Assembly (NCBI GenBank): GCA_036172245.1
Contig: JAYWIR010000002.1
Span: 5,146,001 to 5,210,000 of the forward strand
Length of the DNA stretch: 64,000 bases
Direction of reading: 5' to 3'
Source: Raillietiella orientalis
Lineage: Eukaryota
The notes under the pieces are model-generated. The model was given only the letters and a program-made list of their open reading frames with translations, searched no databases and was not told the origin of the DNA. This document shows, one piece after another, positions 1-54,225 of this stretch; position 1 is the first letter of the stretch, and every line of letters starts with the position of its first letter. The position numbers and the translations under genes were made by a program.

Positions 1-1819
1 TGGTTTATTGATGAATGACAAAAATTGCACGCTCCATACCTTTCGTGATTCCAAAAGATGGAATGGCTAAAACAAGAGAAAGCTTACGACAGTTCAAAGA
101 ATGTAGGAAAGTTCTTTTTATTTTTCATCTTTTTTCTCAATCAACATCCTTATCATGTGGTTTCATTCCTGTGTTTTCCTCTAATAAAGGCAGCTGTGGA
201 AAGAGAGTTCATAGTAACTCATTGCAGATTAATGAATTTTATCAATTAACTGGGATAGGAAGAAGTTGCAAAGAGTGTTCCACACTACATGCACTCTAGG
301 GATCAAATACCAAAACTGACAATCCAATAGTGAAAATATTTGCCATAGATAAATGCGGATCGAGGTATTCAAAATTAAACTTTGTTCTTTCTTTCCTGCA
401 AGACTTTTTATTTTGAACTAGTTTGTACAGAGTTTACTGTATACAAAGCGCGTTTCATTACATTGAAGGAAATGCAAATGCATTTATAATATTCTGAGTA
501 TAATTTAGGCAAATTATCAAATATTTTGAAATAATTCATTTTGGATAGAAATTTATTTAGTGTTTATCTGTTATAATAATTCTTTGAGAGTATCAAGTTA
601 GTTATGTTTACGTAATGATATGGAACATTACAGGATTCCGCGTCTAGTGTGGTTTTTTTTTTACACAAGTGTACACATTGGATGATTTACCTCACTTTAA
701 CTATTCGTTGAAGGATTTTGTAAAAACTAGTTGGATTTGCCAGAAACAAATCACATAGGTTGTGATTTGATTATAAGCTTATCAGCTAGATATAAGAGGC
801 AGTACATATGCGTTGACATGTGCATCAGAGTATCACGTTTGCAGCATGCAACTCTGCTTTACAATTATCAGTAACTTAATATCATATCGATTACCATATT
901 CATTGAATGATTAATTCTGAAGTTTGCTCCTTCATTCGAGGGACATAAATGGTTGCATGTTTTGAATCATTTTGAAACCATCGCCTCTTCCTCTGCCTGT
1001 TGTCTGTGAAAAGCTACGTTATGAAGCGTGATTTCCCTTGAAATGATAAACAGTGTTGAAGTGTCTGGTTTATCGTCGTAAGCAAAAGCAAATCGAACAT
1101 CGATGAAATTCGAATCGATTTGAAATTTAATTTACCTCTATCCCTTGGAACTAGAGATTCCGAGATGTTGAAGCGTTTTTCTTGTTCTTCTGACGAGATG
1201 ATATTCTTGGCAATTCATTTTGCTACTATCGGCGATCCTATCAATTGAATTTAAACAAATCGATAAGGTATGCAGCACTGATCGAAGAAGCCATTCTTTA
1301 TCATCATTTGGTTAATCATAACGCTTAAAATAAAAAGTGGCGACAGCTAGTGACTAACTTCCACGAAAACTGAAAAACCTGTTTTATACTGAAAGGAAAA
1401 AAAGGAAATAATTTCAGTTAAGAGCCCAGCAGCCCAACGAGGACTTTGGATCGTTTAAGGACCGGCGGTTAGACATCCATCGATGCATAGGAACAGAAAG
1501 AATAATGCAGCATATCTCGATGCAAAGTCCACTCAAACAAAGTCAGTCAGTGGAAGAAGCAAAATATTTTGGCTATTTCTGGATGGGACACCGGCTTTTT
1601 CTTGAGGAAACACTGCTCAATCAATAAGATTTATCAAGGTCTGTAAAGAAAGTAGGAGAATACGTATGGAAGACACCTAGGGAACGACTGGGGATAGTAC
1701 TATTGAAGAAATGTTAAGTTGAAAAGATATGATTCGATATCGGTATGACAAGTAAATCATGTGACAAGGTAAAAACAGCAAAGAGGTCAGATGAAAAAAA
1801 GTGAATGCTGTTTCATATC

Positions 1820-1857
1820 TACCGGATGCTCATGACCTTAGGGATGAGCATCCGGTA
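1820..1857. repeat. Perfect 14-bp inverted repeat with 10-nt loop
   Basis: TACCGGATGCTCAT (1820-1833) / ATGAGCATCCGGTA (1844-1857), read directly. Confidence 0.9.
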
Positions 1858-4496
1858 TTTTTGGAATATTTAGCAGAAAAATCTGCTCAAACTTCAACAA
1901 AGTCAACACGTGTGTAGAATAAAGATCAAAACAGATTATTTATCAAGGTGGAATTGTCGAGCTTTTTTCTAAGTGGTCACTGAACTCGAATGATGTAAAA
2001 CTTGCATCAGCTTACTTTGATATGTGATTTCACAGAGCTTTACCAAATCATGATGATTAGAAGGAAATTTATAAACTGTGACACAAGATAAAATATTCTG
2101 CCGAATTGAAATGCTTAAAGATCTTGTTACAAAGGAACTCAAAGGTGTTTTTTTCTGAATTAAATTTTCTTTGAGCATATTCATTACTTCGTCTTTAAAC
2201 TTTTTTTTAGCCGAACGGCACTTGAGCGAACTGAAAATAAGGAAATTTTCAACGATAAGTAAATCTGTACTGACTTCACCCTGATTTTTCTAGAAGAACA
2301 TGAAAACATGAGATTATTAGCTAATGATAAATCGACGTGTTCTCCGTGTAGAAGGCAAATACGAGTACTGCTTGGTTTCCATGCTTACATAGTCCATATG
2401 CCTTAATCAGATGTTTTGATTGACGGAATGCTTTTATAGTATTGTATTTCATAATTTGAAGTATGCATAAAGTAATCTGACAACTTTTAGCTAAGTACTC
2501 TGTACTTTTTGGTTGTCGTTTTCGAAGCGTGAAAACTTCTTCACGGAAGCCGCCCGATGCGCCAAGCAGTGCCCGAGGGCTTCCCGCGAAAAGGGTTGCG
2601 TTTCATGGGGGCAAAGGTATCAGATTCAAATTCTCTTTTGAGAACTCCATATGTTGGTGAGGAAAATGCCCAGCAGGGCTGTTACTCCACCCCATCTCAC
2701 TGAGAACAAAAAAACGGTGCCAGTTCCTACAGTAAAAATATATTTCCTCTTTTCCGTTTTGGAAATTTAGGTTGTGGCGAGTATGCCCAAAAAGAAGGTA
2801 CAGTTATTTAATTGGGAGATTTTTCCCCGCATGATAACGTAGGAGTTTTGCTATTGCGGTTTCAGGGAAGCCAACTGTACCTTTTCTTTGATGTTTAAAC
2901 GAACTGTTAAATTATGGAAATAAATTGAAGTGTACTCGTTTGTATTCATTTGCATTAAGATTCCTCAAAGTTAATGCTAAGAATGCATCAGAACAATGGA
3001 GATCACCATAAAATTATTCCTATAGTTTGCATGAATGTTTGTCAACTGAATGAAGTCAGTTTCAGTGTGGAAAAAATGTGTTAAAGGCTCATCAAGATCC
3101 AGTGGATTTACTCATCCCACTTTGTTTGTGCAGTGATGCAGTGGCAACATCAACTATTTGATCAGAAAATTACCCAAAGCATTTTTTAATCGAATACAAA
3201 TCAGATTCGATCACAGGATTGGATTTAAAATTCCAGTAATGCAATATGCATTAATGGAATCTTATTGTATGAATGCAATTGAAAAAATATTTGAAAAGAA
3301 AAGAGAACTCATTGAGTAAATGTAATCTTAAATAGCATAAACTGTAATAATCTAGCACAAACATGATGCAGTTAGAACAGAGCAAGATGCAAGATGATTC
3401 CATACTTTATTTTGCAAATAAATGTCAAAGATCTCATTGGTTTAAAGTAGGCTGTGCAAGCTTCTCTGAAGAGAATGAAAGAGACAATTTGTCTTGATGT
3501 AAGTTTTGGAAATAAAGACTTTTTTCTGCTGAACCTTGAATGTCTGCCTAATTTATATATGGCTAAGAAAATCCAAAACAAAGCAATTATCAGAAGAGAA
3601 AAAAATCTGAAATAGAATTAATTTAAGAAAAGTAAATAAAAGTTTATATGAAGATTCATTGTTAGTTATGGGATGCTTACTATACAGTCAGTTAAATGGA
3701 ATTGGAACTCAAACTGCTTTTAATTTAGCCAGTTTGAATGACTGAAAGTTTTGTTGATCTGCTTACATTTTCCAGGCCACACGATTTATCAATTTCTTAG
3801 AATTTATTTCTTGGTTTGTTTATAGATTTTGGAGGTTTGCCTGGAACAAAGTATGTCACCAAAGGTTAAAGAAAAATGCATACTTTTGTATGATATGTAG
3901 CAGAACATGCATCTTTTCACGAAATGTGAAGACAATAAGTTTACATACTTGTTTTGTATAATTCAAGACTTTATAGTCTCACCTGCAAGCTAAAATACAT
4001 GCAATATTTCCTCATTATTACTTTGATAAGTTTATTTTGCTTTTTTGGAATCTACCTTAGTTGCATGTGATTGTTTTTGCATATTTTTGTTTGCATATTT
4101 CATTTCGAATTCATTTTTTTCTCGCACGTAAATGAAAAAGCTTCCTTGGAATGATAGTTGTGATTATGAAAAATACATCTTTTTTAAATAGAAAGCTCAG
4201 ATAAAGGCCAAAGTGATTTGTGAGTGGCAAATGGTGGTTACATTGCACTCACAGTGAGCACAAGTTGATCAGTTCTCAGATTTCAAAAATCAGAGTACAG
4301 GTAATCTCTTCAGTTGATGTAGTGCAACATACATCCATAGTGTTGTTATTGCCATATTCTTGGTAATCTGACTTTACAAAATGCTTTTTGCAGCAACATT
4401 TGTAGGGCACACGCTAGTTAAAAAGAAATTCACATGGATCATAAAGAACTTTTCAAGCACACAATCTTGTTTTAGATTGCATCTGCAAACCAAAGC

Positions 4497-5877
4497 ATGC
4501 CATCCAAAGTTGAATCTAGGAAACACCAATCAAAGGAATATCCACGTGATCCATTATGCGCAAGTACATCCATGAGAGTGGACTTATTTAACCAGTCCTA
4601 TCTGGATATTCTGCAGAGATATGAACAAACAATGGAAAAAGTTGTCAATAAGGTAAGTTTGATTGAATTAGAATTAATCATCTGATCAGTACACAGTATG
4701 CGGAAGATGAAAATTGTACTGAGAAACTATCATTTTCATCTAATGCAATCAGAGTCCTGCATAAAGGTGGTAAGTAAAGTTCAGAAACATTTATTTAAGC
4801 AGCATATTTATAGAAAACCTTTCCTTTGATTCAAACTATGAAAAATACAGTGAAACACAGGAAGAATCAGTAGATAAGGATAATAAATTTCCAGGTAATC
4901 AGGGAGCTTCCCAACTTGGATAACTGATACAAACTATTTCTATTTCTTACTGTGTTTTTCAGTGCATGTCACATGTGTATATCTTTAATTTGTGTAGAAT
5001 TTCCAGATTTCCAGAAGTGCCCTTTAGCTGCATCTGGTACAGACCTTACACAAGCAAGTTTAGCTGATAGAAGTTTTCTTGGTATGTAGGGTAACTAAAA
5101 AAATTTTCTACAACACTTAAAAAAGGAATTGGAATATTGTAATAAGAGTTGATATAAATGAAAAGAGCATTTGGGCAAAGTGATACCAGTACTATCTGCA
5201 TAATGGCAAATGTTGATCAGAGGAATTGATCAAGTCATGTTTTTGAGTGTCTGTAATCAGCAATGCAGTCAGCTATCAAGTATTTCATTTGCACAATTAC
5301 ACAGTTCAAACTGCTTTACAGTACATTACCATTATTTGCATCTGCAACAGTTTGCAAGTATTCTATTTCGTAATCCGTGATTGTTTTTGTATTTCAAAAC
5401 GCATTTTGCACAAAACAATCGATTTTTGCATGCAGTGATTATTTCGTTTTTTGTTTACGAAAGTGGGGTTGTTGACTGGAGTACTTGCAAAGCAGTGTTG
5501 ATTAATTGAATAAAAATGTTAAGATACAATTGAATTAAAAAACCTATCAGTCAGTCCAATGACCTTGCATTTCCTTTGCAGAGTTGAACCCACCAGATGA
5601 AGACTTCACGTGGTTTCGAAGGAAGCGTAGTGCACCCTTTCCTGCGCAGAAACTGCATCTTCCCAGGGGAACTCGATACCCGTTCAAAAATCATAGGTTG
5701 TCTGTTTCTCTGCGCGGTCTTGAAAAGGTCGACCCTTCCATAAAAAATGCTCGCCTGGCCTACGAGCACGCCGTAGCGGAGATGGTCCGATCCATCCCAA
5801 AAAACGTCTTCAGCGACACTCTGATGAGGCTTCTAGGAGATGGCACCGTGGATGATGAGTTCGAATGCAATGATTGA
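4497..5877 (+). CDS. Uncharacterised 229-aa protein, 5 coding exons; candidate Scm3/HJURP-like CENP-A chaperone
   Basis: Exons 4497-4652, 4697-4769, 4814-4894, 4998-5081, 5582-5877. All introns are GT-AG (44, 44, 103, 500 nt), phases are consistent (0,1,1,1) and there is no internal stop. N-terminal QRYEQTMEKVVNK|YAEDENCTEKLSFSSNAIRVLHKG. The gene model is well supported; the function is speculative. Upstream exons (e.g. near 4255-4301) could extend the N-terminus. Confidence 0.75.
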
Positions 5878-7855: not shown

Positions 7856-10800
7856 TTTTTTTTTTTTTTTTTTTTTTTACAAGGTCTTGATTCCCTGAAA
7901 CAAAACAGGACTTGCATCGAAACTTACAAGAAAAAACTGAACTAAAAATATCAGCTTGATGATCGTTTGCAATGGGCATGCTTACCTAATAACAAAACAT
8001 TTAGGCGTTGTTTGAGTATCCCCTCTGGTAACAAATCTCGTACGTGAACGTTAAACATTTCGCCAAAAGCAACATCCAGCGTGGAAACCACACGTTTTCA
8101 TAATCCTGTATTTTTCAGTTTCCCCGGTCCGACGAGCGGTAGGGTGAACTTATTGGCTACTTTCATGAATCCCGCTGCTTGTTTCTTTTGCTTTCCTGTT
8201 TCCGATTTCCTCTATTGGGGTCACTCGGGTCTGGTAAGCAGTCTTCCCGTTTGGGCAGCGTCTACTGTCTTTTTCAGGATGTAGCGGTGGGTCCAGGTGG
8301 GTACTCTTCCGCAATTCGTGATCCCAATTTCTCTTTGCGGCACTCCTTCTAAGATGTTGATGGCAAGCACTTGGACATTAGTACACTGCAACTTCGCCCC
8401 TTCTTATCGCGATGCTCGTGGCGTGGATGGCGATGGTGGTACGGAGCCATGGGGCTGTATCGGGGAGCGTTTCCGCTCCCTTCGAACATTCCCGCCAAAA
8501 TCTCCGTTTCCAGTTTCTTCTGCAGGCCAATCACCACCTTCAGTATTGTCCAGTCGTTGGGTGGCGCTGGGTACTGAATACGTGGAGCGGTGTCTCTCTG
8601 CCCCACAGGCTTTGCAGAGTCCATCTTGACCATTACCTGTCCAATGTTTCAGTCGGGAGCCACTAAGGATGCCTACATGGTAGTACATCAGGAGTTCATC
8701 CTAATAATCCGGTGTAAATCGCTCCTGTATATCGTTGAGCGAACCGCTGTCAGGTTCACGTTGCACCACCCGTAGCGGTTGGCTGCCTTGTCCAGTGCGT
8801 CACGGCCTTTCCCAGTGCGTCGCCTTGGTTGATGTGTTTCTCCCTTTCCTCACATATGTTGTCTCTGGTGATCAGGCACCACGCACTGGTCACTTGAAGC
8901 TTCCAGAGTTCGCGAGTCTTGTGCCTAAATCTTCCAATGATTCTCGTGATGTAGTGGTACTGTCGCATTGTGTGTCTACTGCCACTCGTAGCGAACTCTT
9001 TGCAGCGGTCACGAATCTTCATCCGTGGCCTTTGGATCATCCGTTTCCAGATCTCCTGAGAGATCCTAACGAAATTCGGAATCACCATGGCCAGTACTCC
9101 CTGACGAAGTTGTTTACTTCGAGGCACTATCTTAAATTGGTGATTCTTTCCCAGTGTCTGTTTCCTCTTCCATGTGGGGTCGATGTTCCCCCAGTCTTCG
9201 CGCTTACCTCTTAAGACTAACATCAGGCCTCTTAAGTGGTTGGCCATTACACTTATTGTTCGAAGGAATTTCGCGTAGGCTCAGCGTGCCGCATAAGGTC
9301 ATCCGTCCCATTTCCTGGTGGGATCCAGGAGTTGGCGCTCATCCATGTCCTCCAAGGCTTGGTTCAGCGGTTTCATCCCGGTCCCACTTTCCTCTCGCGA
9401 GCGGCATTAGACTTTCAGCCGAACCCGTGGCTTGTGCTCTCTCCAGAGGATCTTACTTTGATGTTGCTCTGCTTCCATCCTCGTTTCTTACTAGTCAACT
9501 GAAGGCCACTCCGAAGAGCACCTTAGGAAGAAGGACTCCATTCCACAAGTTGACCCTCTGTTCCATGCTGAAGCCCGCAGGGATGTACTTTGCTGCTTCT
9601 TCTCTGGCTCTCCCTAGGATTTCTGTCCACAACGTTTGCGAACCCGAGGCCTCTCCAATGCGGATTTCCAGGTACTTAACTTCATCTGTGACTCGGAAAC
9701 CTTCTTTTAGTGGCGAAAGATCCAGGATTCTGATGGGCAACAGTTGGTACTTCTGGGCGTTGATTTTCAGGACCAGTCCTTTTTCTACTGCTGTGACCAC
9801 TTCCAGGAATGCGTGCTGATCCTTTTCGTCTTTCAAAAAGAGAAGGTTAGCCCGCATATGCAAGACGGGTCAGGTGATCAACTCCGATTGTGAGTCCTTC
9901 GAGGCAGACTTTTTGGTCGACGATCGACGACACAGCTTCCATATAAATGACGAACAGCATCGGACTCACTGAGTCTCCCTAACGGACTCCCCTTCCTTCC
10001 TGATTGTCTTCGTCCTGATTGTCCGTTGATTCGGATTTTGAAGCGCGCTTTTCTGAGGGTCATCTGCACGTACTCCAGCAAGTGCTGTGGGAATCCCATC
10101 TTTCCAAGATTCTCATAAGCAGCCCGTGGTTCACAGTATCGAATGGCTTCCCCTTTTCCTTTCCGTAAAGGCCATCACCAGGTTACCAGCTGTAGCCGAG
10201 GGTGGCTTGGTCGCACTTCACATTATGAAACATGCGTCACCCAGTCACGGCGTACGTCTGCGTCACAGGAATCAATGAAGGTGGGATCTTCTTCAGGCGG
10301 TTGGTCCAGATCTTTGCCAACCATTTAGCATCCGTGTTCAAGATGGAGATGGAGCGCCACTGCGTGACTTTCTTGGGGTTGCCGCATTTGGACAGTAGTC
10401 TCATCCTGCTTCCGTGAAATGACCTCCGGGAACTTACCTCCCTCTCGGATTCTGATGATCACTTCGTTTAGCAGACACAGGTGGGCATGCAGGTACCTCT
10501 GGTGGTGCGAGATGGGAACACCATCGGCGCCTGCAGCCACGTCTTTGCGTAGTTCCGCGAACTCTTCCTTGACTTCCTCGAGAGAGATGTCCGCGTTCAG
10601 TTCTTTCTGCATGTGCACAAGTCTTCGGTGCAGGTGTCACACTTGCTGTTCTATCCGGCACACGATCTGGAACATTGGAAGAAGATGACGTAACGGTCCT
10701 GGAACGCCTCCGTAATCCCTTCTGGTGTGTGCCGAACTTTGTGTCCGAATTCTATTGCAAAGATATCGGTGACGACATTTTTCCTTTCCTGCATACTGAT

Positions 10801-12400
10801 CCCCCGTTTCACGCTGAGGAAGACGTACCGCCACTCGTGCTGTTCCCAGTGACTCGAGAGGTTCTTCGATGTTGAGCTTTTCCTGCCTTACCATCCTGCA
10901 TCCAGACTGTAGGCTATTGCAGAACACGTGGATCGTATGCTTCAGTCTGTCCCAATCGTCGACACAGCGGACGGTGTTGTCCTGCAGGATCGTTTCGACG
11001 AGTTGCTGGTGGCTGGGAAGGGTTTCGAACCCAGGCGGACATGGAGAGTGCATGCTGCCCTTGTGCCTGTTTGTTTCTGAGGACTTGCGGTTTTCCATGT
11101 GGTCTATACCAGAGGATGGTCCAACTGCAGGGTCTGCGTGTCGAGGAATCCCTGAATGCATGATTGCGAGTTCTTGGCTGTGCAGGACGTGATCGAACGG
11201 CTTATGGCCAGCCGTTAGCCACAACGGGCGGAACTTGTCAAACAGCTGCAGATACGGCGTCCTGCTTCGGACATCGTCTCACTGGGAGATAGTATCGAAG
11301 GCGTTAAAGTCACCCATGACGAGGACGATGTCCTTCGTTGTAGCTTTGTTGCACAGAAGGTTCTGCACTGTCACCACACACCGGTGTTTGCCTCGATGTG
11401 GTCCACACACGTTCACCAGGAAGAGGTCAACGTTTACTTACCAGGACGTCCCAAGTCCGGCACTGCGGCCAGGTCACGGGTAAAAGAACTCCAGGACGGT
11501 GTGCGCGATATCGTTCTTGACGAGGATCGCCACGCCCATCGTCTTCTTCTCACCTGGGCTTAGGAACAGCTTGTTCGAGTTCGAGTTCCAGGCAGATCTC
11601 CTGCTCCGTCTCGTGCGTTTCCTGAAGACACACGATGTCGTCACGATGCGTGATCTTTCTCCTCTTGTCCTGGCTCCACATGACGTTGATGTTCCAGGGA
11701 GCGATTTTAATGCTTCTGGCGGATGACAGGGAGGAGGACATCAGGGATTATTGGACAGATTTGGTCTTCTTTTTCTGCTTGGAAGAAGTCCACTGCTTGC
11801 TCCTAGCAGAGCCTTCATTGCCGACGTCGCTCTCAGTCTCGCTTTGATTTTTGCGATTCCTCCTTTGTTTCGGAGGGCGACATATATGTCGCGCACGTTC
11901 GCGAGGCGCAGTGGCCCTGTTTTGAGGGTCGCCATCTTTACCTCACCTCCTATATTATACTCCAAATGGGTATCTTTACCCGTTGTATTTCGAAGATGGC
12001 GGGTTTGGTTGAACATGCTGTTGTTGTCGTTACGCTCGCCTTATTCAGCGGTGTTGCTACCGCTGCGTAGGAGAGGGACGGTGATGGTGCCATCATGTCC
12101 GACGCTGGATCCTCTTTCGGGGTTGGCAGTTGGCATTCCATGCCATGCACTACTGCCTGGTGCTTGATGGTGTCTCTCCCCTGCTTTCAGATGGCGTAGG
12201 CCGCTGGAGTGTGGTTGGATTGTTCTTCGCTGCGATGGCCTCTACTTCGCCGTTTACGTATGCTCTACTTCGTATGCCACCCTTCCTTCTCGTCGTAGGT
12301 TCGCGAACCTCAAGCTACTTTCCCTGTTTCCTTAGGCTAAGATCGCCTCGAAGCCAGGCAATTTGTGTTCCAGGTTCTTCATAGATCTGAAGTGACACAA
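7856..12400 (-). mobile_element. Degenerate APE-RT non-LTR retrotransposon (L1/Tx1-like) with poly(A) tail
   Basis: 23-nt T run at 7856-7878 is the poly(A) tail on the minus strand. Minus-strand ORF2 pieces: APE motifs IAPWNIN, DIVCLQETH (~11620-11710) and IVLVMGDFNA (~11300-11330); RT motifs GVR*GDSVSPMLF (~9950-9990) and LAYA(D) (~9850-9865); C-terminal CKAC knuckle remnant (~8600). Many frameshifts and stops. GC content is higher than the flanks. The 5' boundary is approximate and no TSD was found. Confidence 0.88.
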
Positions 12401-12779
12401 CGGAGTACGAAATAGACTAACTGGACTTCGGGAACAGCTGGTTGTTGAACTTCCGGACCTTGATGGCAAGATGGAGGTAGAAATAACTGCTGACTCTGAT
12501 GTGACGCTCCCTGAGACAGAGATTTTTGCCTACCCTAAGTGTGGAACAACACATGTCCAACGTCACGCTGTGGGCCATGAATAGTCCCAATTTTAAGGAC
12601 ACGGCACTCTAAGTTTTTCTCTTTGGGAATCACTCTATAATCTCATTCGGAATTCGAGCTTACTGAAAGGTTGGCGGAGTTCCTATTCCAGCTGGCGACT
12701 GGAAATTCGTCAAAGAACCCACCAAATTAACAAAAACCCAATTTGAATTGCCAAAAAGCCCATCGACAAGAAAGAAAAT

Positions 12780-13060
12780 GATTGGTTATGCGTTGGTTGT
12801 GTCTGCAAAGGCATCATGGTGGGCTTGTCTGCTGGTAAGTAAGGAAGGGATGCACAGGTTGATCCCAGGAAGGAGGTGTGCAGGTTATCTTAGGAAGGTG
12901 ATATCAATGCACTATACAGCTCCACTCCTTTCAGGAAGATGGTGGACTGCAACTCGGTCACTATGCCCGTACGCTTCAGTTCAGAAAGGCCGGGCTTACG
13001 CAAGTACAAGAAGTCCAACCATTGGAAGTTCAACTCAACACATGGGACATGGGGAATGCT
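12780..13060 (+). mobile_element. Possible fragment of a second LINE ORF2 (end of APE domain), opposite orientation
   Basis: Translation ...VDCNSVTMPVRF...KYKKSNHWKFNST resembles the SDH...WKLN segment after L1-type endonucleases. Interrupted by stops. Confidence 0.3.
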
Positions 13061-26121: not shown

Positions 26122-29100
26122 TCAATCCTTGAGATCTTCATGAAGCCATTTAGGGATTCGATATCCTAACCTTTTGAGAAGTCTTTCCAGTGCAACATTC
26201 TGTGCTCTATAATAACTCTGTACAAGGAAATAAACATAAAAAATACGATTGCAAACAGCAGTATAAAATTTGCCTTTAAAAATTTAAGTGATGTTGAATT
26301 CATGGCAGGATAATTGCGTCCTTTACCTTTTCCTAAGCACTTTGTTGCTCCAGATTCTAAAACTGGGCAATAAAAACCTTTTCTCGGATCATATCTGGGG
26401 AATCATGGAATCACATCTTTACTCCAAAATATCTTGCATCTATACCTTAAGTAAGTACTGTAATTAAACAGTGGCACTTCAAGAAATTTTTGCAGTTCAT
26501 TCAAAGAGTGACTAGGGTCGCGGTGCAACTGTTCTCCATCCATTATGAAAATCTGCTCTGGTGGAAAATGTGCTAGCCATTTTTCCAAATGGCGTGCATA
26601 CATTCCTGGGTTCAAGCATCTGAAAATTCATACATGTTAGGGAGATGAATCACCTATGAAGCATACATTACACCTGTGATGTAAACTGCGAAGTCTAGGG
26701 TCATTATTTGACAGTTTTATCACATCCAAAAAAGAGTACTGTAGAGCAGTGGGATCTGCATGGGCTCTCTGATGCTGGTACCAGCTATAAGCTCGTTTGG
26801 CAGGTGGAATAAGGACCACTACCAGTTTAGCCTAAAAGATATGAAATGGTCGCTTTCATGCAATACTATTTATGATTACCTGGGGTAATAAGCTATGAAC
26901 ACGTGCAGGGGCACGCTCTGTATCAAAGTAGTTGGCACTTTTTTCAAAGAGCAATTTGTCAGTATCATTTTCCAATGCAGGAAAATACTGACGGTACCTA
27001 AACATCAATCAGTCTTTTGAAATTGATTTTTCTACCACCATTGTAATCCCTGATTATAATTCCTGAGATTACTGAAGAACTGTATTTCTTCAAAACTGTG
27101 TTGACTAGGTATGTTACTTTGGATGGAAGGATGCATGTTTAGAAAAGTATACAAGGCAGTGGTGCCTGTCTTCTGTGGACCTAACACAAGCACGGAAGGT
27201 AATTGCTTGCAGTTGTCATCTGCTGGCCAAATTTTGCGATGACGTGGATCTGTACAGGGATTCTAAGAAAATTTGAAGCTTTCACATCCAAATGTCACAC
27301 TCACTCCCCAAATAGGGTATTTTTCTTGTTCATACAACTGGAAATATCTATCTGCTAGTGATACTGGATGCAGGGTCCTGAGACGTAGATTTGTCCAGCA
27401 CTGGACAAAGCGGAAAACTGCATCAAATGCATAAAGAGCCAATCGATCATTGCCATAGTTAGATAAGTGTGTCATAAAGACCATAATCTGGCAAACCTTG
27501 ACTTAATTTTCCCAAGAATGCTTACTCACTTGATTGTTTACAATTGTTTGGAACAGATCTCCGCCCAGCAGACTAGCCTCCAGTTTTTCAGGACCACCAG
27601 GATACTTTTCCAGGAAGATAGTGTGAGTGTAAAGATCACAGGTTTGGCGAGGCAGCACCTGAGATAAGGAAGAGATGCAGAAAGTACCAACTGACAAACA
27701 ATGTCAACTTTGATGTTATGATGAATAAATCCTTGGCGAAGCCATGAAGGTTTTAGATGTGGATACTCCTCAGTAGATGTAGCCTTCACATTCAAAACAT
27801 TCACCCAAGCCTCATACAATGGTTCATGCACGGGATATACACCAGAATGATGAGGAGACACTGCATAGCCATTTTCGATATGTAAGCCATGCTCCTGAAA
27901 TAATGATACGACCTGAAGCAAACAAAATTCCAAAAAACCTTGGCAAACTTGAGATTCATTCTGAGATTATCTTCCAAAACAGACACATTTTTGATGAGGT
28001 GTGGTTGAGTGTGATTCCAAGTGTGGCAAAACCACCAAAATCTATGCTTATTCTCTGCAAAGCTAAGAATAAAATAAACACTTTCATTTGATTTCTCAAC
28101 CGAGAAGCATATCATCTCCTTGGTTTTCATCTGGAGTGCCATGATGAAAAAATTTCCCTGAGAATCCCAGATTAAATCGGAAACCACTGATGAAAGAAGC
28201 AAAGTGATCTTGTGCTTTCAAGAGAGCCTATGGATCACATAGCACACCATGTCTCAGTGGTACAATCACCTGGACATCCTCTGATCTCATACGTGATCCA
28301 GATGGGGCAACAAAAACATCATCAATGTCAATTAAAATAAATCGGTCCAAAGGTATACTAAGTTTCCCATGACTCAAGAATGACATTGAATCCAGCAGGA
28401 GCAACTTATGTAGCCACAGCTGAAGTCCAGAACCAAATAAAACTTTTTGTATTCCATCAATCAAACCTCTATCCTAGGAGGGCTTATATTCACAGGGAAG
28501 CAACCGTTTTCACTTTACCTGCACCACAGTTACCAAATGAGATGGTATACTGATTTGGTCAGCACTCCATTCTAATGGTTGAGCCCACTCAATAGGCTTA
28601 AAAGTAATATCGTCGAAGGAAAATGCTGTCCAGTTCTGTCCTGGAAGAGCACCATGAATCACACCTCCAGGCTTTGTTAAGCGTAATACAGCAGAGGACG
28701 GATCTAGAGTAGCATCCTGAAGACACATATGCTGACTACTACTATCAATGTTGTATTTACTTTAACTTGCAGCCTGGTGTGCACATATAAAGGCAAACCA
28801 AGTAGTTTGCTTCCTTTGAAAATGTTTTTCTGTGGAGCCAAAAAGCCAATGATGCCAACTTTGAATGATGTACAATATTTATCCAGAATATTCTTAGTCC
28901 ATTTGTTTAAAGTCAGATACCGTTCAAAGTTTGTAAAAATTATAACAGCATACTTCCCTCGATTAAACTGGGCAAGATGATGCAATGCCTTCACAGAAGT
29001 TTCCTTTTTGTATCTATAAAAGTTGCACTTAAACTTGTGAACAAACGTATAATATAATAACCCCACTTGAAGAGCACATTCAATGACAAACAAAATAATT

Positions 29101-29566
29101 GAATAATGTTAATCTGCGCATTAAATGCAAGGCTTTCAATATCAAAAAATGAATAACCAAAACACTTAAGACAACATTTGTAGAGTACTAACTTGATATG
29201 ATTAGCAGTTAGCAGTGCAGACAGGTCTTTTCCTAAGTCAGACCGAGAGCCTTCAGTTATCAGTAATACTTTAGCATCCAAATGCAATTGTGCTTCTGAA
29301 CTATGATTATTAACCTTTGTTGCATTATGGACTGCTGAGCAATGAAAAGTAGACTTAGGACGTACATATATGAAAAACCTAAAACAGATGGTGTATTCTG
29401 AAAAATTTTATTCCTACCTGTAGGTTGATTGGTCCGACAGATTCTTAAGAATATAAAGCAGATTAAGGAATAGAATAACCGAAAGGATAATCTTAAAATA
29501 TTTGATTTGACTTTTCAGATATGTGATGCACCAGTAGTGAAATGGCAGAATTGTTGTATACATCAT
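26122..29566 (-). CDS. sfl: Bifunctional heparan sulfate N-deacetylase/N-sulfotransferase (sulfateless/NDST), multi-exon
   Basis: N-terminal type II TM segment. Motifs [86 protein letters not shown] (PAPS-binding), [13 protein letters not shown]-terminus [25 protein letters not shown]. Stop TGA at 26124-26122. Confidence 0.96.
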
Positions 29567-46913: not shown

Positions 46914-49900
46914 ATGTCAATGAGAGGTAATTTATCAAGAAAGTGTTTCTGTATTACTTGCTGTAGCGAAAAAAATTGTATTGTAATATGCGTGATTTGT
47001 GTAATTGTGCAGAACAAAGTCACGTTGCAGATCCCGCCGACGAAGTTCCTGATAGCTATGGGAGACGGAGTAGTAATGGTGCTACACAGGAGTTGTTGAT
47101 CGTAACAGAACATGAAGTAACCAGGTGAAGTGATCTTAACAAACCTTTTGAGACATGTTTCCTACATAAAATTGGCAGTTACTGGAGTTTGGCACAGAAA
47201 TTGAATGATATCAGTGATGTGAATCATTATCATGGATTCATGGTCACCTTTGTATGGTGTTTATCTTAGTGTGAATGGGGTAGTGTGAGCTCAGGATTGC
47301 ATTAATGAATGTAATGGTAAATGTGAATTACATCTCAGTAATATATTGATAGCTAGTGCTGAGATTATAACATTATGATTCTTTGCTGTTTGGTTAGCGA
47401 ATTTTCAACGATTTTAGTTGACAAGATTTAAATTTTCTTGATTTTCTATATCTGAAGTAACTGCAAAAATTTTTCCACGATAAATGCTTTTATTGTGAAA
47501 GCAATTATTATGTATTTATTAAATAAGTGCTTTCACAAACTTCATGCAGTCACACCATTGTGAGTACTTCTGTTAGTTCATTTGAATCTATGGAAAACGT
47601 TGGATTAAGTTCAAAATATTTCATAATGCATTAAGATATTGCTGTTTATATTCTTGAAAAGTTTAGGAGAAAATATATGAAAAAAAATTTGATATGAACT
47701 TCAAGCTTTACTCCTCTACTCACTCACTTGTTTGTAAACCCTCATTTTTCAAATAAAGTTGCTGTAAATATATGCATGCTTCATTGAAATCTGTCATATC
47801 ATGGTTATATAATATAGTGTTAATGTAATGGTTGTGGGTATTTGTTTTATTTTATTTATTCATTTATCATGCCAGTGTTGATGTGGATGTTTTGGTGCCC
47901 CTACATTAAAAAAAGGGATGAAACAAGCTTTTGTTGACCTACGCATTAAAAATGCCCTTCCATGTGGATTTCGATATACTTAATGATGAAATGTCAGTGA
48001 TTTTAACATTAAGATAGCATTAATTTCAATTCATAATTCCAATGCAATCAGAATCATATCATAAAAGTAAGATTCTGTGATTCTACAGTAGATGAGCAAA
48101 TGAATCTTGCAAGCATTTAAAATGTGAACTACAAGCATGGATTCACTGGGAAGTACTAGAGCTATGATGGATTCTGAGCTGATTATTTGGCCAATGGTGA
48201 TAAGCAGCATATTCATTTAATACATGCAAGTTGTTGCTTGTCAACAACATCAGATTTTGTAACTGTTGAGAGCAATTACATGCACATGAATCAATCAGAA
48301 TTATCATATTGGAGGTTTAACGATTGGGATTAAATGTGTTCACATGTTATATGGACAGCAACAAACTACTTTTGTAACTTCATGTATCCACATGGAAACA
48401 AAACACAGTTCGAGTTTATTTTTCATATTTTCCTACATTTATTAAGCTACATTTCTTAGTCTCTTTATTAAGTTTATGTTCATTTAACTTATGTTCATTT
48501 ACGTAATAAAATAGAAAATGGTCATTATTTATTTGATCATTCAAGATAGTAAAAACCAATTCTTTAGTAATGTTTCATTCTTTCTGTATTGATGAGGCAT
48601 CCTGTGAAGTTAGGAAATGTTCTGTATTATTATATTGGTCTTATCATTCTCAAAACCTAAACCAGTTTATTGTGAATTTAAGTAAACATTTGTTTTTCGT
48701 GAAAATGAAAGGCATGGTTGTTGAGTATGATTATGTGGAGAGAACTAGGCACATCACTAGGTATTCTCATGTAAATAAGGTAACTTCCATTAAAATGAAT
48801 TTATGAATAACATGCTCTATTTGAAGCTGTTTTGTGTGTCCCACAAAATGGGTTATTAATGTGTTACTATGTGCAGTAATAGAGCAAAATAACATTTTCC
48901 ATGCAGCTATGTGATATTGTGTTTAAATTATCTTTGTGTATAAAATACAATAATATTTCATAGAAATAAATGATTGAGTCAATTATGTTCAGCAAGTGTA
49001 TACATAGATTCAGAATGATATTGTACAAGAAAATAGACCTCATACCACCATTTTCCCATTTTTTATTTAAAAATCCCATGTTCACTTTAACGAATGCTGT
49101 AAATTTTAATTACAGTGAAATTAAGTTGTATATAGGTGCATAAGCGCATAATGAAGGCAATAATTTATCAGACTTGTTATTTGGTGATTTGTGCCAAACG
49201 GTAACAAAGTGTTGCACAAATGGATTAAAATTGGGTTTAAAGTTACATATATCCTTTAATAGTTTATTGTGTTGAAAAGGGAGGTAAACCATACGTAATA
49301 TTTAGTCAGGTGCTCATTTCAATTCATTTTCATACAAGTCAACCAAATTAGGAATAGTTTAAATCATTATTCGTAGATGTTTCATCAGAAAACAGTAGTT
49401 TTTTAATTTAAAACAGATGAAAATCGTGTGAGGCGTGAAGTTTTTAGTAGCCATGTTATTGGTTTTGTGATAATATTTCTTAAGCATTCTTTACATAGAT
49501 CAAATTGAAGATTAAGCCTTTAACTGTCTTGCATTTTCATTTAGAACATTTTTTTTCGTCAGGTTGGCGCTGCATACGATCAGTGCCTGTTTCTCTAAGT
49601 TCTTGCATAGTTTTCCGATTTTCAGTGATATTTGAAGAAGGTTTGGCCCCAAGGTTCAGGTTTTTTCAAGGGTTTTGAACTGTTGAAGCAATTTTCTCAT
49701 GAGACTTTTATAATGAAAGAGGTATTCTTACATATCCAGATCAAGTGCTGAATTCGAAATTGTGTAAGATTCTTGTTATAATTTACAGAATTTGTTCCTA
49801 GTTTTATGTATAGTGATTTTCATAACTACAAAGCAAAGTTTTCATAGTTAAAGTATTTATACCACAAATGTCATCAATAAAAAATTGTTTTAGAAGACAA

Positions 49901-50891
49901 TGTTGGGTTTGTTTGGCCACAGATGAAGATGATCAGAATGCTGCATGGAGAAGTCCCTGCATGTGTCAGGGTTCTGCAAAATGGGTATGTATTGCGCTAC
50001 TGTACATTCATGGAGAAGAACATGTAATTGTAGGTACATCTACGTTGTTTAGAGAGATGGGTAGATGAAAAACAAAAAGGAAATCCTATGAGTCGTGTGT
50101 CTTGTCCTCAGTGCAATATCCCTTATGTTATCCTCTATCCCCGGATGGGTAAGAACATAATAAGCAATCTGGTGTCATGATCCAGTTTTAGGCTACTTAG
50201 AATCAGTGTTGGAAACAATAGAACAGATGATATGCCAAGTTAGTCCTTTTCTAGCTGCAGGTGCTCTTGCTAGTTCGTTCTACTGGTCAGCAATGACCTA
50301 TGGTGCAGTCACAGTGATGCAACTTGTAGGTCATATAGAAGGCCTGATGTTAATGGAACAGTCCGATCCTTTATTTCTATTGTTGGGATTACCCAGCATA
50401 CCTGTTGCTTTGGTCCTTTTAGAAATGGTTAGATGGGAAGAGCAACTGTTGTTTTTTCTTCGCAGAAATGTGCCACGAGTGTTAGTTCTACGAATTCTTT
50501 TGCCATTCTTCAGGTAAAACATTGAGAAGTACATAAGAGAAGTCTACCAATAATCTAGCATTCCAAATCAGCAAAATAGCGTAGAGTGCATTCCTGATTC
50601 AGATGTGACTGGCTTCACCACAGTAGCCCACTCAACCACTCGTGTCCTTTGTGAGGCTTTATTGCTGCCCACCATTGCCAACCTGTGTGGACATGTTTTC
50701 TTTGATAATGTCAACAGTAATCTTCGTCGAACGTTACTGGTTTGTATTTATATGCTGATACAAGTATGTCATTGTGTGATCAGGGGGGACTTGCATTTTT
50801 GGCTGTCAGAGGAGCATTAAAAATTTATCATCAGCAAAGAAAGTTCATCAGACAAACTCAGAGGAAAATAATGGATTTTAATGATCATTGA
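46914..50891 (+). CDS. MARCHF5: Mitochondrial RING-CH E3 ubiquitin ligase MARCH5/MITOL, multi-exon
   Basis: RING-CH: RQCWVCLATDEDD..W.SPCMCQGSAKW|VHLRCLERWVDEKQKGN....CPQC. TM region YWSAMTYGAVTVMQ and DPLFLLLGLPSIPV; TRVLCEALLLPTIA. Stop TGA at 50889-50891. Upstream exons 46914-46926 and 47013-47124 are phase-compatible with exon 49894 across a 2.8-kb intron; the start codon is less certain. Confidence 0.93.
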
Positions 50892-50933
50892 ATTTATGAT
50901 GTTTTATCAGCATAGGAATATATCTTTAAGCAG

Positions 50934-52145
50934 TTACTCATTTTTTCTGTGAGGGGTGATACCTGTGGGCCAAGTAAGCCCATCTCCCAAACATTTAGAT
51001 TGATAGGGTAGAAGTAAATGAAGGGCACTGATGCCATCTGCCAAGTCAAGAAATAGCTGCCAGTTTTTCTTCCAGCCCAAATCATAAGGATTCACAAAAG
51101 ACTGCAGAGGATTTTTAGGTGGCTTAGGGTGTCTTACCTGACCCTTAAGCTTCAAAAGTTGCTTTTCTGCTTTGTTTATATGTCTTTCTATGCTGGTTTC
51201 AGCACAACTTATTAGCCAACTGTGCCATAAAAGCAGTGGGCCAAGGATTAATAATACACCTGTAGGTCATTCTTATCAGAGGCAAGCCACTTAATCTAAT
51301 CTTACCTGAACATAAAGCACATGCAGATAAAAGGCAGAAGTGATGTAAGTTCAGAAATTCTGAATCTTTATGTTGCTTCTCAGTGATCTGATTTGTTTTC
51401 CGCTCGTTCCAAATCAACTGCCCTCCAAATACCACTATCAGTAATGCACCCATGCATGTATACACCATATGTAACCAGAAATGTTTATGTGTTCTGTACC
51501 CAACACAGTTGTTCAGCCAAGCTATCAGGATTGTCAAGCAAATCTATTAATGAAAAGAAAGCATACGGCAATGGTGATCCATTTTCAATATGCAACAGTT
51601 GCATACTGAGCAGTGATGTGTTCGTGGTGGTTTGGGTGCTACACATTTTTTACAGATAGATGTAATCTCGGGGAAGAAACCATTCTATGTGTTGCGTTTG
51701 ATATTTTCATGATATATTTTATGAGCTACCTTGGGAGGAGAACCAGGGTTGCATGTTACAGCCTTGTAGAAGTGGTATATAACATTGGCTTTGATCCAGT
51801 TTCCTATTACCAAGAGGACAAAGAGGAGCATAGGATTGGAATGCCAGTAATATGGTATGCCCATTACATAAGCAACCACAATGACAAACAGCTTTAGAAG
51901 CACCACACTAGCCACTAGTGTCTACAAGAAAGCATGAGATACGAATTTCTGATAACTCCTACCGGTCCTAAGATACGTGTGTACTGATCCACAAAACGTA
52001 TCATAGGTGTTAGAATAGTGTCTCCTATGTAGTCCCAGCTTAAAAAGGCATTCCAGAATAGAGAAAAAAAAACAAGTTTAACCAGGTGCCAGTGGAAACT
52101 GCAATACTGTTTCCATCTTTCCCACAATTTGGAACTTGGGAACAT
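50934..52145 (-). CDS. ZDHHC16: Palmitoyltransferase ZDHHC16 (DHHC family), multi-exon
   Basis: [58 protein letters not shown]...GDGLTW. N-terminus SLFWNAF...[12 protein letters not shown] is typical of ZDHHC16. Confidence 0.92.
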
Positions 52146-52224: not shown

Positions 52225-54225
52225 TTATTTATTGTTAGGAGATATCCTTTGAAAAAGAATATCGTTCCCAATACCAAGAGAATGGTCTGGCTCATTAGAC
52301 TGTTTCTCTGCATCACACCACATTCGACAGTGATCTGCAATGCCCAGTTTGTCTGTTGGAGAAAATAAAAACAAAGAAAGCTGCATCTGCTACTTACCCA
52401 AAATAATGTTAGCAATACTTGGAATCACAGGCTGAAGCAAAATGGCACACACCCGCAAGTTTTCCAAACCAATGTACAGTACAGCACATAAGCGCTCACT
52501 TTGAGATGCTGCATTTAGCTCCCAAGGGCGCTGCTGCTGAAAATATCGGTGCATGTTACGTAAGGTCGCCATCACCAATTGTAAGCCTTGGTAGAAACAC
52601 CAATTGTTGAAATGTTCCTGAACCATAACTGCGACCATACCCTACAAGCAGTTTGCAGATCCCATTTGAATACCTGGAAGGTCCTTCAACTGCTGCAGAA
52701 TTTTCATCTCTTCTTCAGAAAACTCCTGTGGGCGAGGTCCAGGGAACATTTGCTGATGGTTTACTGTGGGTGCAGTACATCTTCTCACAAGATTCCCCAA
52801 TGTATTAGCAAGTTCGGCATTTAATAAATGCATCATTTTCGTTTCGCTATAATCTAAGAAACATCTAACCAACAAACATTTACGAAAGTAAACATTTACT
52901 TGCATCAGATGGGAGCGTGGCTTCACGAAGTAGAAAGTACCGAATAGCATCAACAGAGTACCTTGGTAACAAAGCCATTGGACTGATAACGTTACCCAAT
53001 GATTTAGACATTTTGCGACCTTCCACATTCCAATGGGAATGACAAATTATGGATTTCGGAGGTTCCATGCCAGCAGCCATCAAAAAAGCTGGCCAATATA
53101 TTGCATGGAACCTAGGGTGTTACTTGGCAATAATCTGTACTTGGGAGAATGTTATGCTTACTTCAGGATGTCTTTCCCAATCACATGATGGGTGGGTGGC
53201 CAATGGGCAAACGTGTTGGGATATCCTGCTGCTGTCAGGTAGCTAACTAAAGCATCCAGCCATACGTAGATCGTATGTTTTGGATTGTTCGGGACAGAAA
53301 TTCCCCAATTAAGTCGAACTGCAGGTCGGGATACAGAAAGATCACTTAATGGGAACTCTTGTAGCCAGGATTCCAGCTGCTTTTGAAAAACAGCTGGATA
53401 TACTGGTTGCTCTGAGGATATACAATGAACACATGGAAGCAAGAATATTCTTACTTTTTCTTGCCCATTCAGACAATTCTTTTTGAAATGCCCTCAAAGA
53501 AAACAAATAGTTTTCTTCTTCCAGCCACTCAACAGATTGCTGAAGATCTTTAGTCAGCCATTTCTTAGATTCTACATTGTATTCTATATCTGTTGGGGAT
53601 ACAAATTGCTCCTGTTGCATACAGTACCATCCTTCATATTGACCATGATAAATATATCCTTTATCAAACAGCTGTGACTAACAGGGAAAGTTTTTTTTTG
53701 AAATCATCCTAATCATTCTTAAACTACCCAAAATGCCTGAACTGCAAAAATGTGTCGTTCATCTGTAGTGCGAATAAAATCAGCATAAGAAATCCTGAAC
53801 TGGGAAAACATATTGCGAAAAAGCTCCGAGAGGTAGTTGCAATGGTTTGATACACAGATTCCTGCTTTTTCTGCTGCTTTCTGAACTTTGATCCCATGTT
53901 CATCTGTACCACAGGTGAGAAAAACAGGCTGCTTTCTGACAAGGGACTGGAATCGGATCCAGGCATCAGCTAATACAGTGGAATATAAGTGGCCTAGATG
54001 AGGAGCTGACACAAACATTACCAGTAGGCAGAACACTGATTAATTTTTACCAGCATTAACATAGAATATTGGAGTTGTAACAAAGCACATGGATGCATGC
54101 TCATTACTCTGAGTAGACTGGTGATTCACATTTTTATAATTATACAATCTGCATCGTTGAAGATGCTTTGTAGTAACCACAAACGTTCTCATGAGAGGCC
54201 TGTAAGAAGAAAACCATTGCAACAT
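52225..54225 (-). CDS. MARS2: Mitochondrial methionyl-tRNA synthetase, multi-exon
   Basis: Basic N-terminal presequence from ATG 54225. Motifs [20 protein letters not shown] (HIGH-like), [59 protein letters not shown]. Stop TAA at 52227-52225. No appended C-terminal domain. Confidence 0.95.

Follow-up and report, generated by a model that had tools for sequence, protein, structure and literature searches.

Does the short gene near the start of this stretch encode the CENP-A chaperone of the animal it comes from? The window (the whole stretch of DNA that was analysed, 64,000 nucleotides, G000:C2:5146001-5210000) belongs to an assembly of 210 Mb which, judged by homology of its genes for heparan sulfate N-deacetylase, methionyl-tRNA synthetase, MARCH5 and histones, is an animal genome, and a MARCH5 exon finds its closest named matches among insect proteins (only 50-52% identity); the 18S sequence may be that of a moulting animal other than a nematode. 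The recognizable neighbours in the window are ordinary genes, to which can be added one on the minus strand at window 50900-51600 that we take to be a probable DHHC palmitoyltransferase.

27500-29400, minus strand: heparan sulfate N-deacetylase, ordinary gene
49890-50890, plus strand: MARCH5, ordinary gene with short introns of 43-49 nt
52640-53680, minus strand: methionyl-tRNA synthetase, ordinary gene

The candidate lies on the plus strand and its splicing was modelled from the DNA sequence alone, giving five exons that total 690 nt and encode 229 residues plus a stop codon. All four introns (44, 44, 103 and 500 nt) run from GT to AG in phases 0, 1, 1 and 1, which bears out the phase-consistent five-exon reading of the first-pass annotation. 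We regard the five-exon, 229-residue model as probably that of a real gene; given its short length, it may lack some exons.

4497..4652, plus strand: exon 1, residues 1-52; ATG with A at -3; last residue K52, phase 0
4551..4649, plus strand: long helix predicted by AlphaFold2, residues 19-51; suggested to be the scm3-domain helix that binds CENP-A/H4 (role after PMC13322267 and PMC10070699, in the parts consulted)
4653..4696, plus strand: intron 1, 44 nt, GT..AG, phase 0, separating K52 from Y53 in the KY motif
4697..4769, plus strand: exon 2, residues 53-76, with the Y of KY, an acidic linker and alternating hydrophobics up to Lys-Gly; would form the beta part of the scm3 domain
4770..4813, plus strand: intron 2, 44 nt, phase 1
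4814..4894, plus strand: exon 3, acidic and polar
4998..5081, plus strand: exon 4, polar
5582..5877, plus strand: exon 5, about residues 132-229 plus the stop; a basic stretch, then low-confidence helices
4455..4475, plus strand: AG at 4475 that resembles an acceptor; same frame as the ATG, stop-free between; probable end of a 5' UTR intron, or a longer N-terminus
2400..2950, no strand: CpG-retaining block (observed/expected 0.91) upstream of the CpG-depleted stretch; possible promoter

The locus is single-copy at the DNA level in this genome. Introns that could be anchored by homology (in MARCH5, H3.3 and a CENP-A candidate) measure 43-49 nt in six unambiguous cases and either 43 or 37 nt in a seventh, so that introns of 44 nt are typical for the genome and one of 37 nt is still conceivable. 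The CpG observed/expected ratio is 0.17 in exons 1-4 and 0.22 in the 1.5 kb upstream (3000-4496), compared with 0.30-0.39 in three housekeeping genes of the window, 0.85 in a LINE and 0.76 for the window average. Across the whole window the ratio is bimodal, at about 0.2-0.4 over the housekeeping genes (22-30 kb and 48-56 kb) and 0.7-1.0 elsewhere, which suggests gene-body DNA methylation; the depletion of exons 1-4 and of the sequence upstream would reflect such methylation of an expressed gene. On the minus strand of window 1-2450, several open frames (e.g. 1972-2289) may belong to a divergent gene with which the candidate shares the block at 2400-2950; they match no Pfam family and gave no convincing match in the PDB.

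The scm3 domain has been described as consisting of a helix some 25 residues long whose hydrophobics are spaced, a KY pair and an acidic/hydrophobic strand (PMC13322267), and the helix pattern that the first-pass annotation gave for Scm3/HJURP agrees with the alignments published there. In the candidate, AlphaFold2 run on the single sequence predicts residues 19-51 to form one helix that ends at the K52/Y53 junction (mean pLDDT 83.6), and the N-terminal helix of about 25 residues ending in KY that is a feature of Scm3/HJURP is thereby present in the splice model. Residues 42-53 read across intron 1 as had been claimed, with K52 and Y53 flanking it. Counted from K52 as position 0, the helix carries F at -21, Y at -17, R at -11, Y at -10, M at -6, E at -5 and V at -3 and -2, leading to K at 0 and Y at +1; the regular hydrophobic spacing of the family helix is thus found, with Ile at -14 deviating from it. 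Beyond the pair come E at +9, L at +11 and F at +13 and then I-R-V-L-x-K-G, and in this strand patch of exon 2 those three residues together with I+18 and V+20 fit the strand pattern, while Ser at +12 leaves the strict acidic motif unmatched. Aligned by eye, about ten positions agree in register with published rows with an insertion of at most two residues, the rows in question being animal and choanoflagellate ones, relative to which the turn is two residues longer, and the end of the strand is close to spider rows ending R-V-I-x-K-K-G (PMC13322267). The departures are Ser at +12, where D/E stands in 13 of 13 rows of one published alignment and 10 of 14 of another and the human protein has Gln, Lys at +10, and Ile at -14, where the rows mostly have S/N (PMC13322267). 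According to the same paper, in the parts consulted, the acidic patch after KY is relaxed in animals. All 20 fungal Scm3 domains collected from metagenomes carry E at -5 and the KY pair. The alternating hydrophobics, acidic middle and basic C-terminus noted at first pass are all present (16 D/E against 5 K/R in residues 77-140; 11 K/R against 1 D/E in residues 141-180), its C-terminal helices being predicted at low confidence. In human HJURP the first intron presumably separates K39 from Y40, in phase 0, and the second lies close to the Gly at the end of the domain; the candidate is built likewise. A literature search found no source for the codon position of HJURP introns, and the likeness carries no weight in our judgement of the candidate.

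Set against the Scm3/HJURP family as a comparison system (PF10384; human HJURP 14-74, 3R45; yeast Scm3 2YFV and 2L5A), the candidate shares the long N-terminal helix with hydrophobics at -10, -6, -3 and -2 before KY, the acidic linker and alternating hydrophobics up to near a Gly, the polar low-complexity remainder, the single copy and the N-terminal position of the domain. It differs from the family in falling below every profile threshold that was tried, in having Ser where +12 is usually acidic, in a turn longer by two residues and in the lack of a PF motif after KY. Membership of the family is probable on two features of the sequence, the KY-ending helix and its hydrophobic spacing.

A chaperone of this kind is to be expected in the genome, because HJURP is lost together with CENP-A, their presence being tied (PMC13322267), and a probable CENP-A is present. 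The gene concerned (G000:C23, approximately 387,885-388,504, minus strand) has three exons and introns of 48 and 43 nt and encodes an H3 variant of 177 residues whose tail is unrelated and rich in Arg, whose loop 1 is extended by two residues and which ends in a short C-terminal extension. It agrees with two of four criteria given in PMC4359364, in the part consulted: loop 1 has the two extra residues, Gln68 is absent, and Phe84 and Thr118 are kept. The best PDB match of its last exon is Cse4, at E 3.5e-15 compared with 8.3e-14 for H3. Thr107, which we take to be a further CENP-A criterion, is replaced. By sequence, this is probably the one CENP-A of the genome. Our histone survey returned 72 histone-fold matches, 42 of which were covered by the loci or regions fetched, and within that coverage 12 further weak matches (broken copies of canonical H3/H2B plus an H2A variant) yielded no second CENP-A. 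Two copies of an intact 136-residue H3 variant with several histone-fold substitutions were seen on another contig (L004 and L005, G000:C45); the genome also contains many broken copies of H3 and H2B. A Yippee-Mis18 profile run over the genome gave two matches, which we take to be cereblon and YPEL, a result that is no proof of the absence of Mis18.

If the candidate is a chaperone of this family, it would carry new CENP-A/H4 dimers to centromeres. By analogy with the family, helix 19-51 would lie antiparallel along CENP-A helix 2 and touch H4, and R41, K52 and Y53 would contact the Glu that is conserved in helix 2 of CENP-A, as human Lys39 and Tyr40 contact Glu96 of CENP-A (PMC10070699, in the part consulted). 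The three residues correspond to human R32, K39 and Y40, K and Y by their position relative to KY and R approximately. The strands of exon 2 may cap CENP-A loop 1 and so give selectivity over H3, and the acidic middle may shield histone charge, both as predicted from the family; the basic and helical C-terminus might, at a guess, bind either DNA or a receptor at the centromere, CENP-C for example.

Against this stands the possibility of a lineage-specific gene unrelated to Scm3/HJURP, its amphipathic helix having another partner or forming a coiled coil, its K-Y arising by chance and the true chaperone lying elsewhere, undetected. How often the pattern arises by chance bears directly on it. 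The full motif was written by eye after the candidate had been seen, from published alignments and with the acid at +12 dropped, and in this relaxed form it occurred in 2 of 200,000 shuffles of the candidate protein. In random sequence, 0.3-0.5 matches are expected by chance within the first 100 residues of the members of a proteome of 12,000-20,000 proteins, more for helical proteins. With the acid at +12 required, the strict motif does not match the candidate. Taken by itself, the helix motif is no commoner in the genome than chance allows: the helix-plus-donor pattern gave two matches compared with seven in the reversed control, the second match lying upstream of a helicase exon in a hydrophobic stretch bounded by stops, and the contiguous KY pattern, scanned on the forward strand only, gave five compared with seven in its control. 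None of those five is a better scm3 gene, three having stops inside the motif, one being a hydrophobic stretch and one an exon of what we take to be an adaptin. Thus one other split-motif match and five contiguous ones contain no better scm3 candidate, in scans that are blind to other intron positions, and the lack of a rival in either scan argues against an unrelated gene, as do the approximately ten positions in register and the helix that ends at KY.

No profile search gave a significant match. A fungal profile built from the 20 metagenomic Scm3 domains (four of four tested pass Pfam Scm3) scored residues 1-80 at 6.9 bits with an alignment confined to 40-57, the strand part lying outside it and the profile being insensitive for animals; this score was reached by 9 of 20,000 shuffles, and the modelled splice was the best of seven splice forms. 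With the whole protein the score was 4.9 bits, rank 5 of 4,806 sequences (4,805 local open frames and the candidate; E 5.4), and the candidate is outscored by unrelated proteins, both from the PDB and from this genome. A low score is however expected, because the same profile also misses human HJURP and CAL1: searched against the PDB, the fungal alignment found yeast Scm3, with human HJURP and CAL1 unlisted at E up to 10. True orthologues have been accepted at HMMER E up to about 1 (PMC13322267, in the part consulted).

Searches with single exons were silent, yet each of these queries lacked half of the domain. Pfam Scm3 matched none of the five exons, each of which holds half the domain at most, and Pfam Scm3 and SANTA gave no match over the genome, where the positive controls were silent too. 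The Pfam matches of exon 1 to KNOX2 and Hydrolase_4 (E 0.06-0.14) are far below the cut-off and were set aside. In phmmer, exon 1 by itself, which lacks the Y and the strands, recovered no scm3 protein at E <=0.001 and no PDB chain at E <=10, and its one match among 1.84 billion representatives (P0020) is a TPR-repeat protein that we reject as a relative, the match being a repeat artefact. The description of the gene as an orphan accordingly holds for exon 5, which has no relative among 76 candidates, and for exon 1 apart from that match. With hhalign, exon 1 reached a probability of 1% in a different register; exon 2, likewise half the domain, had no PDB match and a negligible hhalign result. 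The ESM Atlas returned no usable match for exon 1, nor any for a known NDST exon. A complex prediction scored 0.04 against a mark of 0.34, with CENP-A entered as two exon pieces, the partner lacking Y53 and the strands, and the controls not folded, and so counts neither for nor against the complex. The intron between K and Y hides the best signature of the family from six-frame and exon-wise searches.

Weighing these points, we consider the candidate to be probably a divergent Scm3/HJURP orthologue of this animal, since one expected orthologue is likely to match the motif, compared with a few tenths of a chance match among orphan N-termini; the estimate is tempered because the motif was relaxed after the candidate had been seen and neither profile nor structure confirms it. 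The HJURP-like reading of the first-pass annotation is in this sense the best explanation, with the pattern, the helix and the probable CENP-A in its favour and the missing acid at +12 and lack of a significant profile match against it. An unrelated, lineage-specific gene is possible and rather unlikely.

It is very unlikely that the model itself is wrong, with intron 1 spliced otherwise or the locus not a working gene and KY plus strands an artefact of splice choice: the splicing was deduced from DNA and three other acceptors lie within 37-71 nt of the donor, two of them in open frame, and exon 5 resembles the nearby LINE in composition and weakly matches a stop-containing stretch on contig C47, set against which are four consecutive GT-AG introns whose phases fit, two short introns of 44 nt, inside the 43-49 nt of the six anchored ones, the pyrimidine-rich acceptor and open frame of exon 5, and the single copy of the C47 stretch. 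From the donor at 4653, the acceptor at 4696 yields the 229-residue model, and those at 4706 and 4723 leave the frames open with Y missing. The AG at 4689 had been expected to destroy KY; it retains K-Y and shifts the frame, with a stop six codons on.

Of all parts of the model, exon 5 is the least secure. Its GC content of 0.51 and CpG observed/expected ratio of 1.0 are unlike those of exons 1-4 and like those of the nearby LINE (0.52 and 0.85). Its acceptor is the most pyrimidine-rich of the region, the GC-rich block begins at that acceptor, stops at the stop codon and coincides with the open frame, and the frame stays open in 185 of 20,000 shuffles. Helices are predicted at low confidence in its second half. 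The exon has no Pfam family, no relatives among 218 metagenome pattern matches and no fold match, with a single PDB sequence match at E 0.52. Its start matches C47:796431-796517, plus strand (L033:1501-1587), at 52% over 29 residues (E 0.015 in the genome), a single-copy stretch, with stops in it, that lies just downstream of a repeat. The match does not reach into exon 4 and therefore gives no support for a processed copy of the candidate gene; being single-copy, the stretch is not a member of a repeat family. The repeat next to it (L033:991-1428, approximately 435 nt) has at least 40 copies at 74-81% identity among 2,179 first-look candidates.

How far would such an orthologue extend what is known of the family? 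The premise that these chaperones go unrecognised in invertebrates is out of date: HJURP-type chaperones are now reported across most animal phyla, and the family changes about 10 times faster than other histone chaperones (PMC13322267, 2026, in the parts consulted). At 229 residues the candidate falls below the 288-1823 residues of the 20 animal entries in Table S1 of that paper, the closest in length being Ramazzottius GAU99461 (288 residues). With the chelicerate and tardigrade HJURP candidates (Hollis et al. 2026, PMC13322267) it shares the short N-terminal lead and KY, and with several spider rows (e.g. XP_055940117), by eye, a strand pattern ending h-R-V-h-x-K-G; its exons searched (1 and 5) have no detectable match to any protein in the databases. 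Neither its motif string nor the names of four basal nematode genera occur in the accessible parts of Data S1-S3 of PMC13322267, and a literature search found no other papers on HJURP in unsampled invertebrate groups. Drosophila CAL1, hymenopteran CAL1-like and C. elegans NEFR-1 are divergent invertebrate orthologues missed by standard searches, and the candidate would be another. By eye, it shows neither the insect helix pattern with its Trp nor the F-N-I pattern of the nematode rows, and has no match to the insect motif after the domain.

The candidate is likely to be one more member of a known family and not a new system, and opens no new question, because PMC13322267, in the parts consulted, already showed the chaperone to be kept in invertebrates. 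If the assignment holds, the animal's CENP-A loader is in hand and the evolution of the family gains a further data point, very divergent and very short; the candidate stands out by its short length and the intron inside KY. Should an intron at that site be common to vertebrate HJURP, as we presume, intron position would be a new handle for hidden orthologues. A bolder reading, which we find quite unlikely, makes the candidate the shortest animal HJURP so far, from an unsampled lineage, with a reshaped beta hairpin, a foreign C-terminal exon replacing the centromere-targeting region, and Mis18 and KNL2/M18BP1 lost; if true, it would describe a minimal, rewired CENP-A loading pathway.

Broken copies of a non-LTR retrotransposon, with a GC content of about 0.52, lie on the minus strand of window 8000-13000 and at L046:700-4900; in the latter, L046:2329-3144 contains a reverse transcriptase domain (Pfam).
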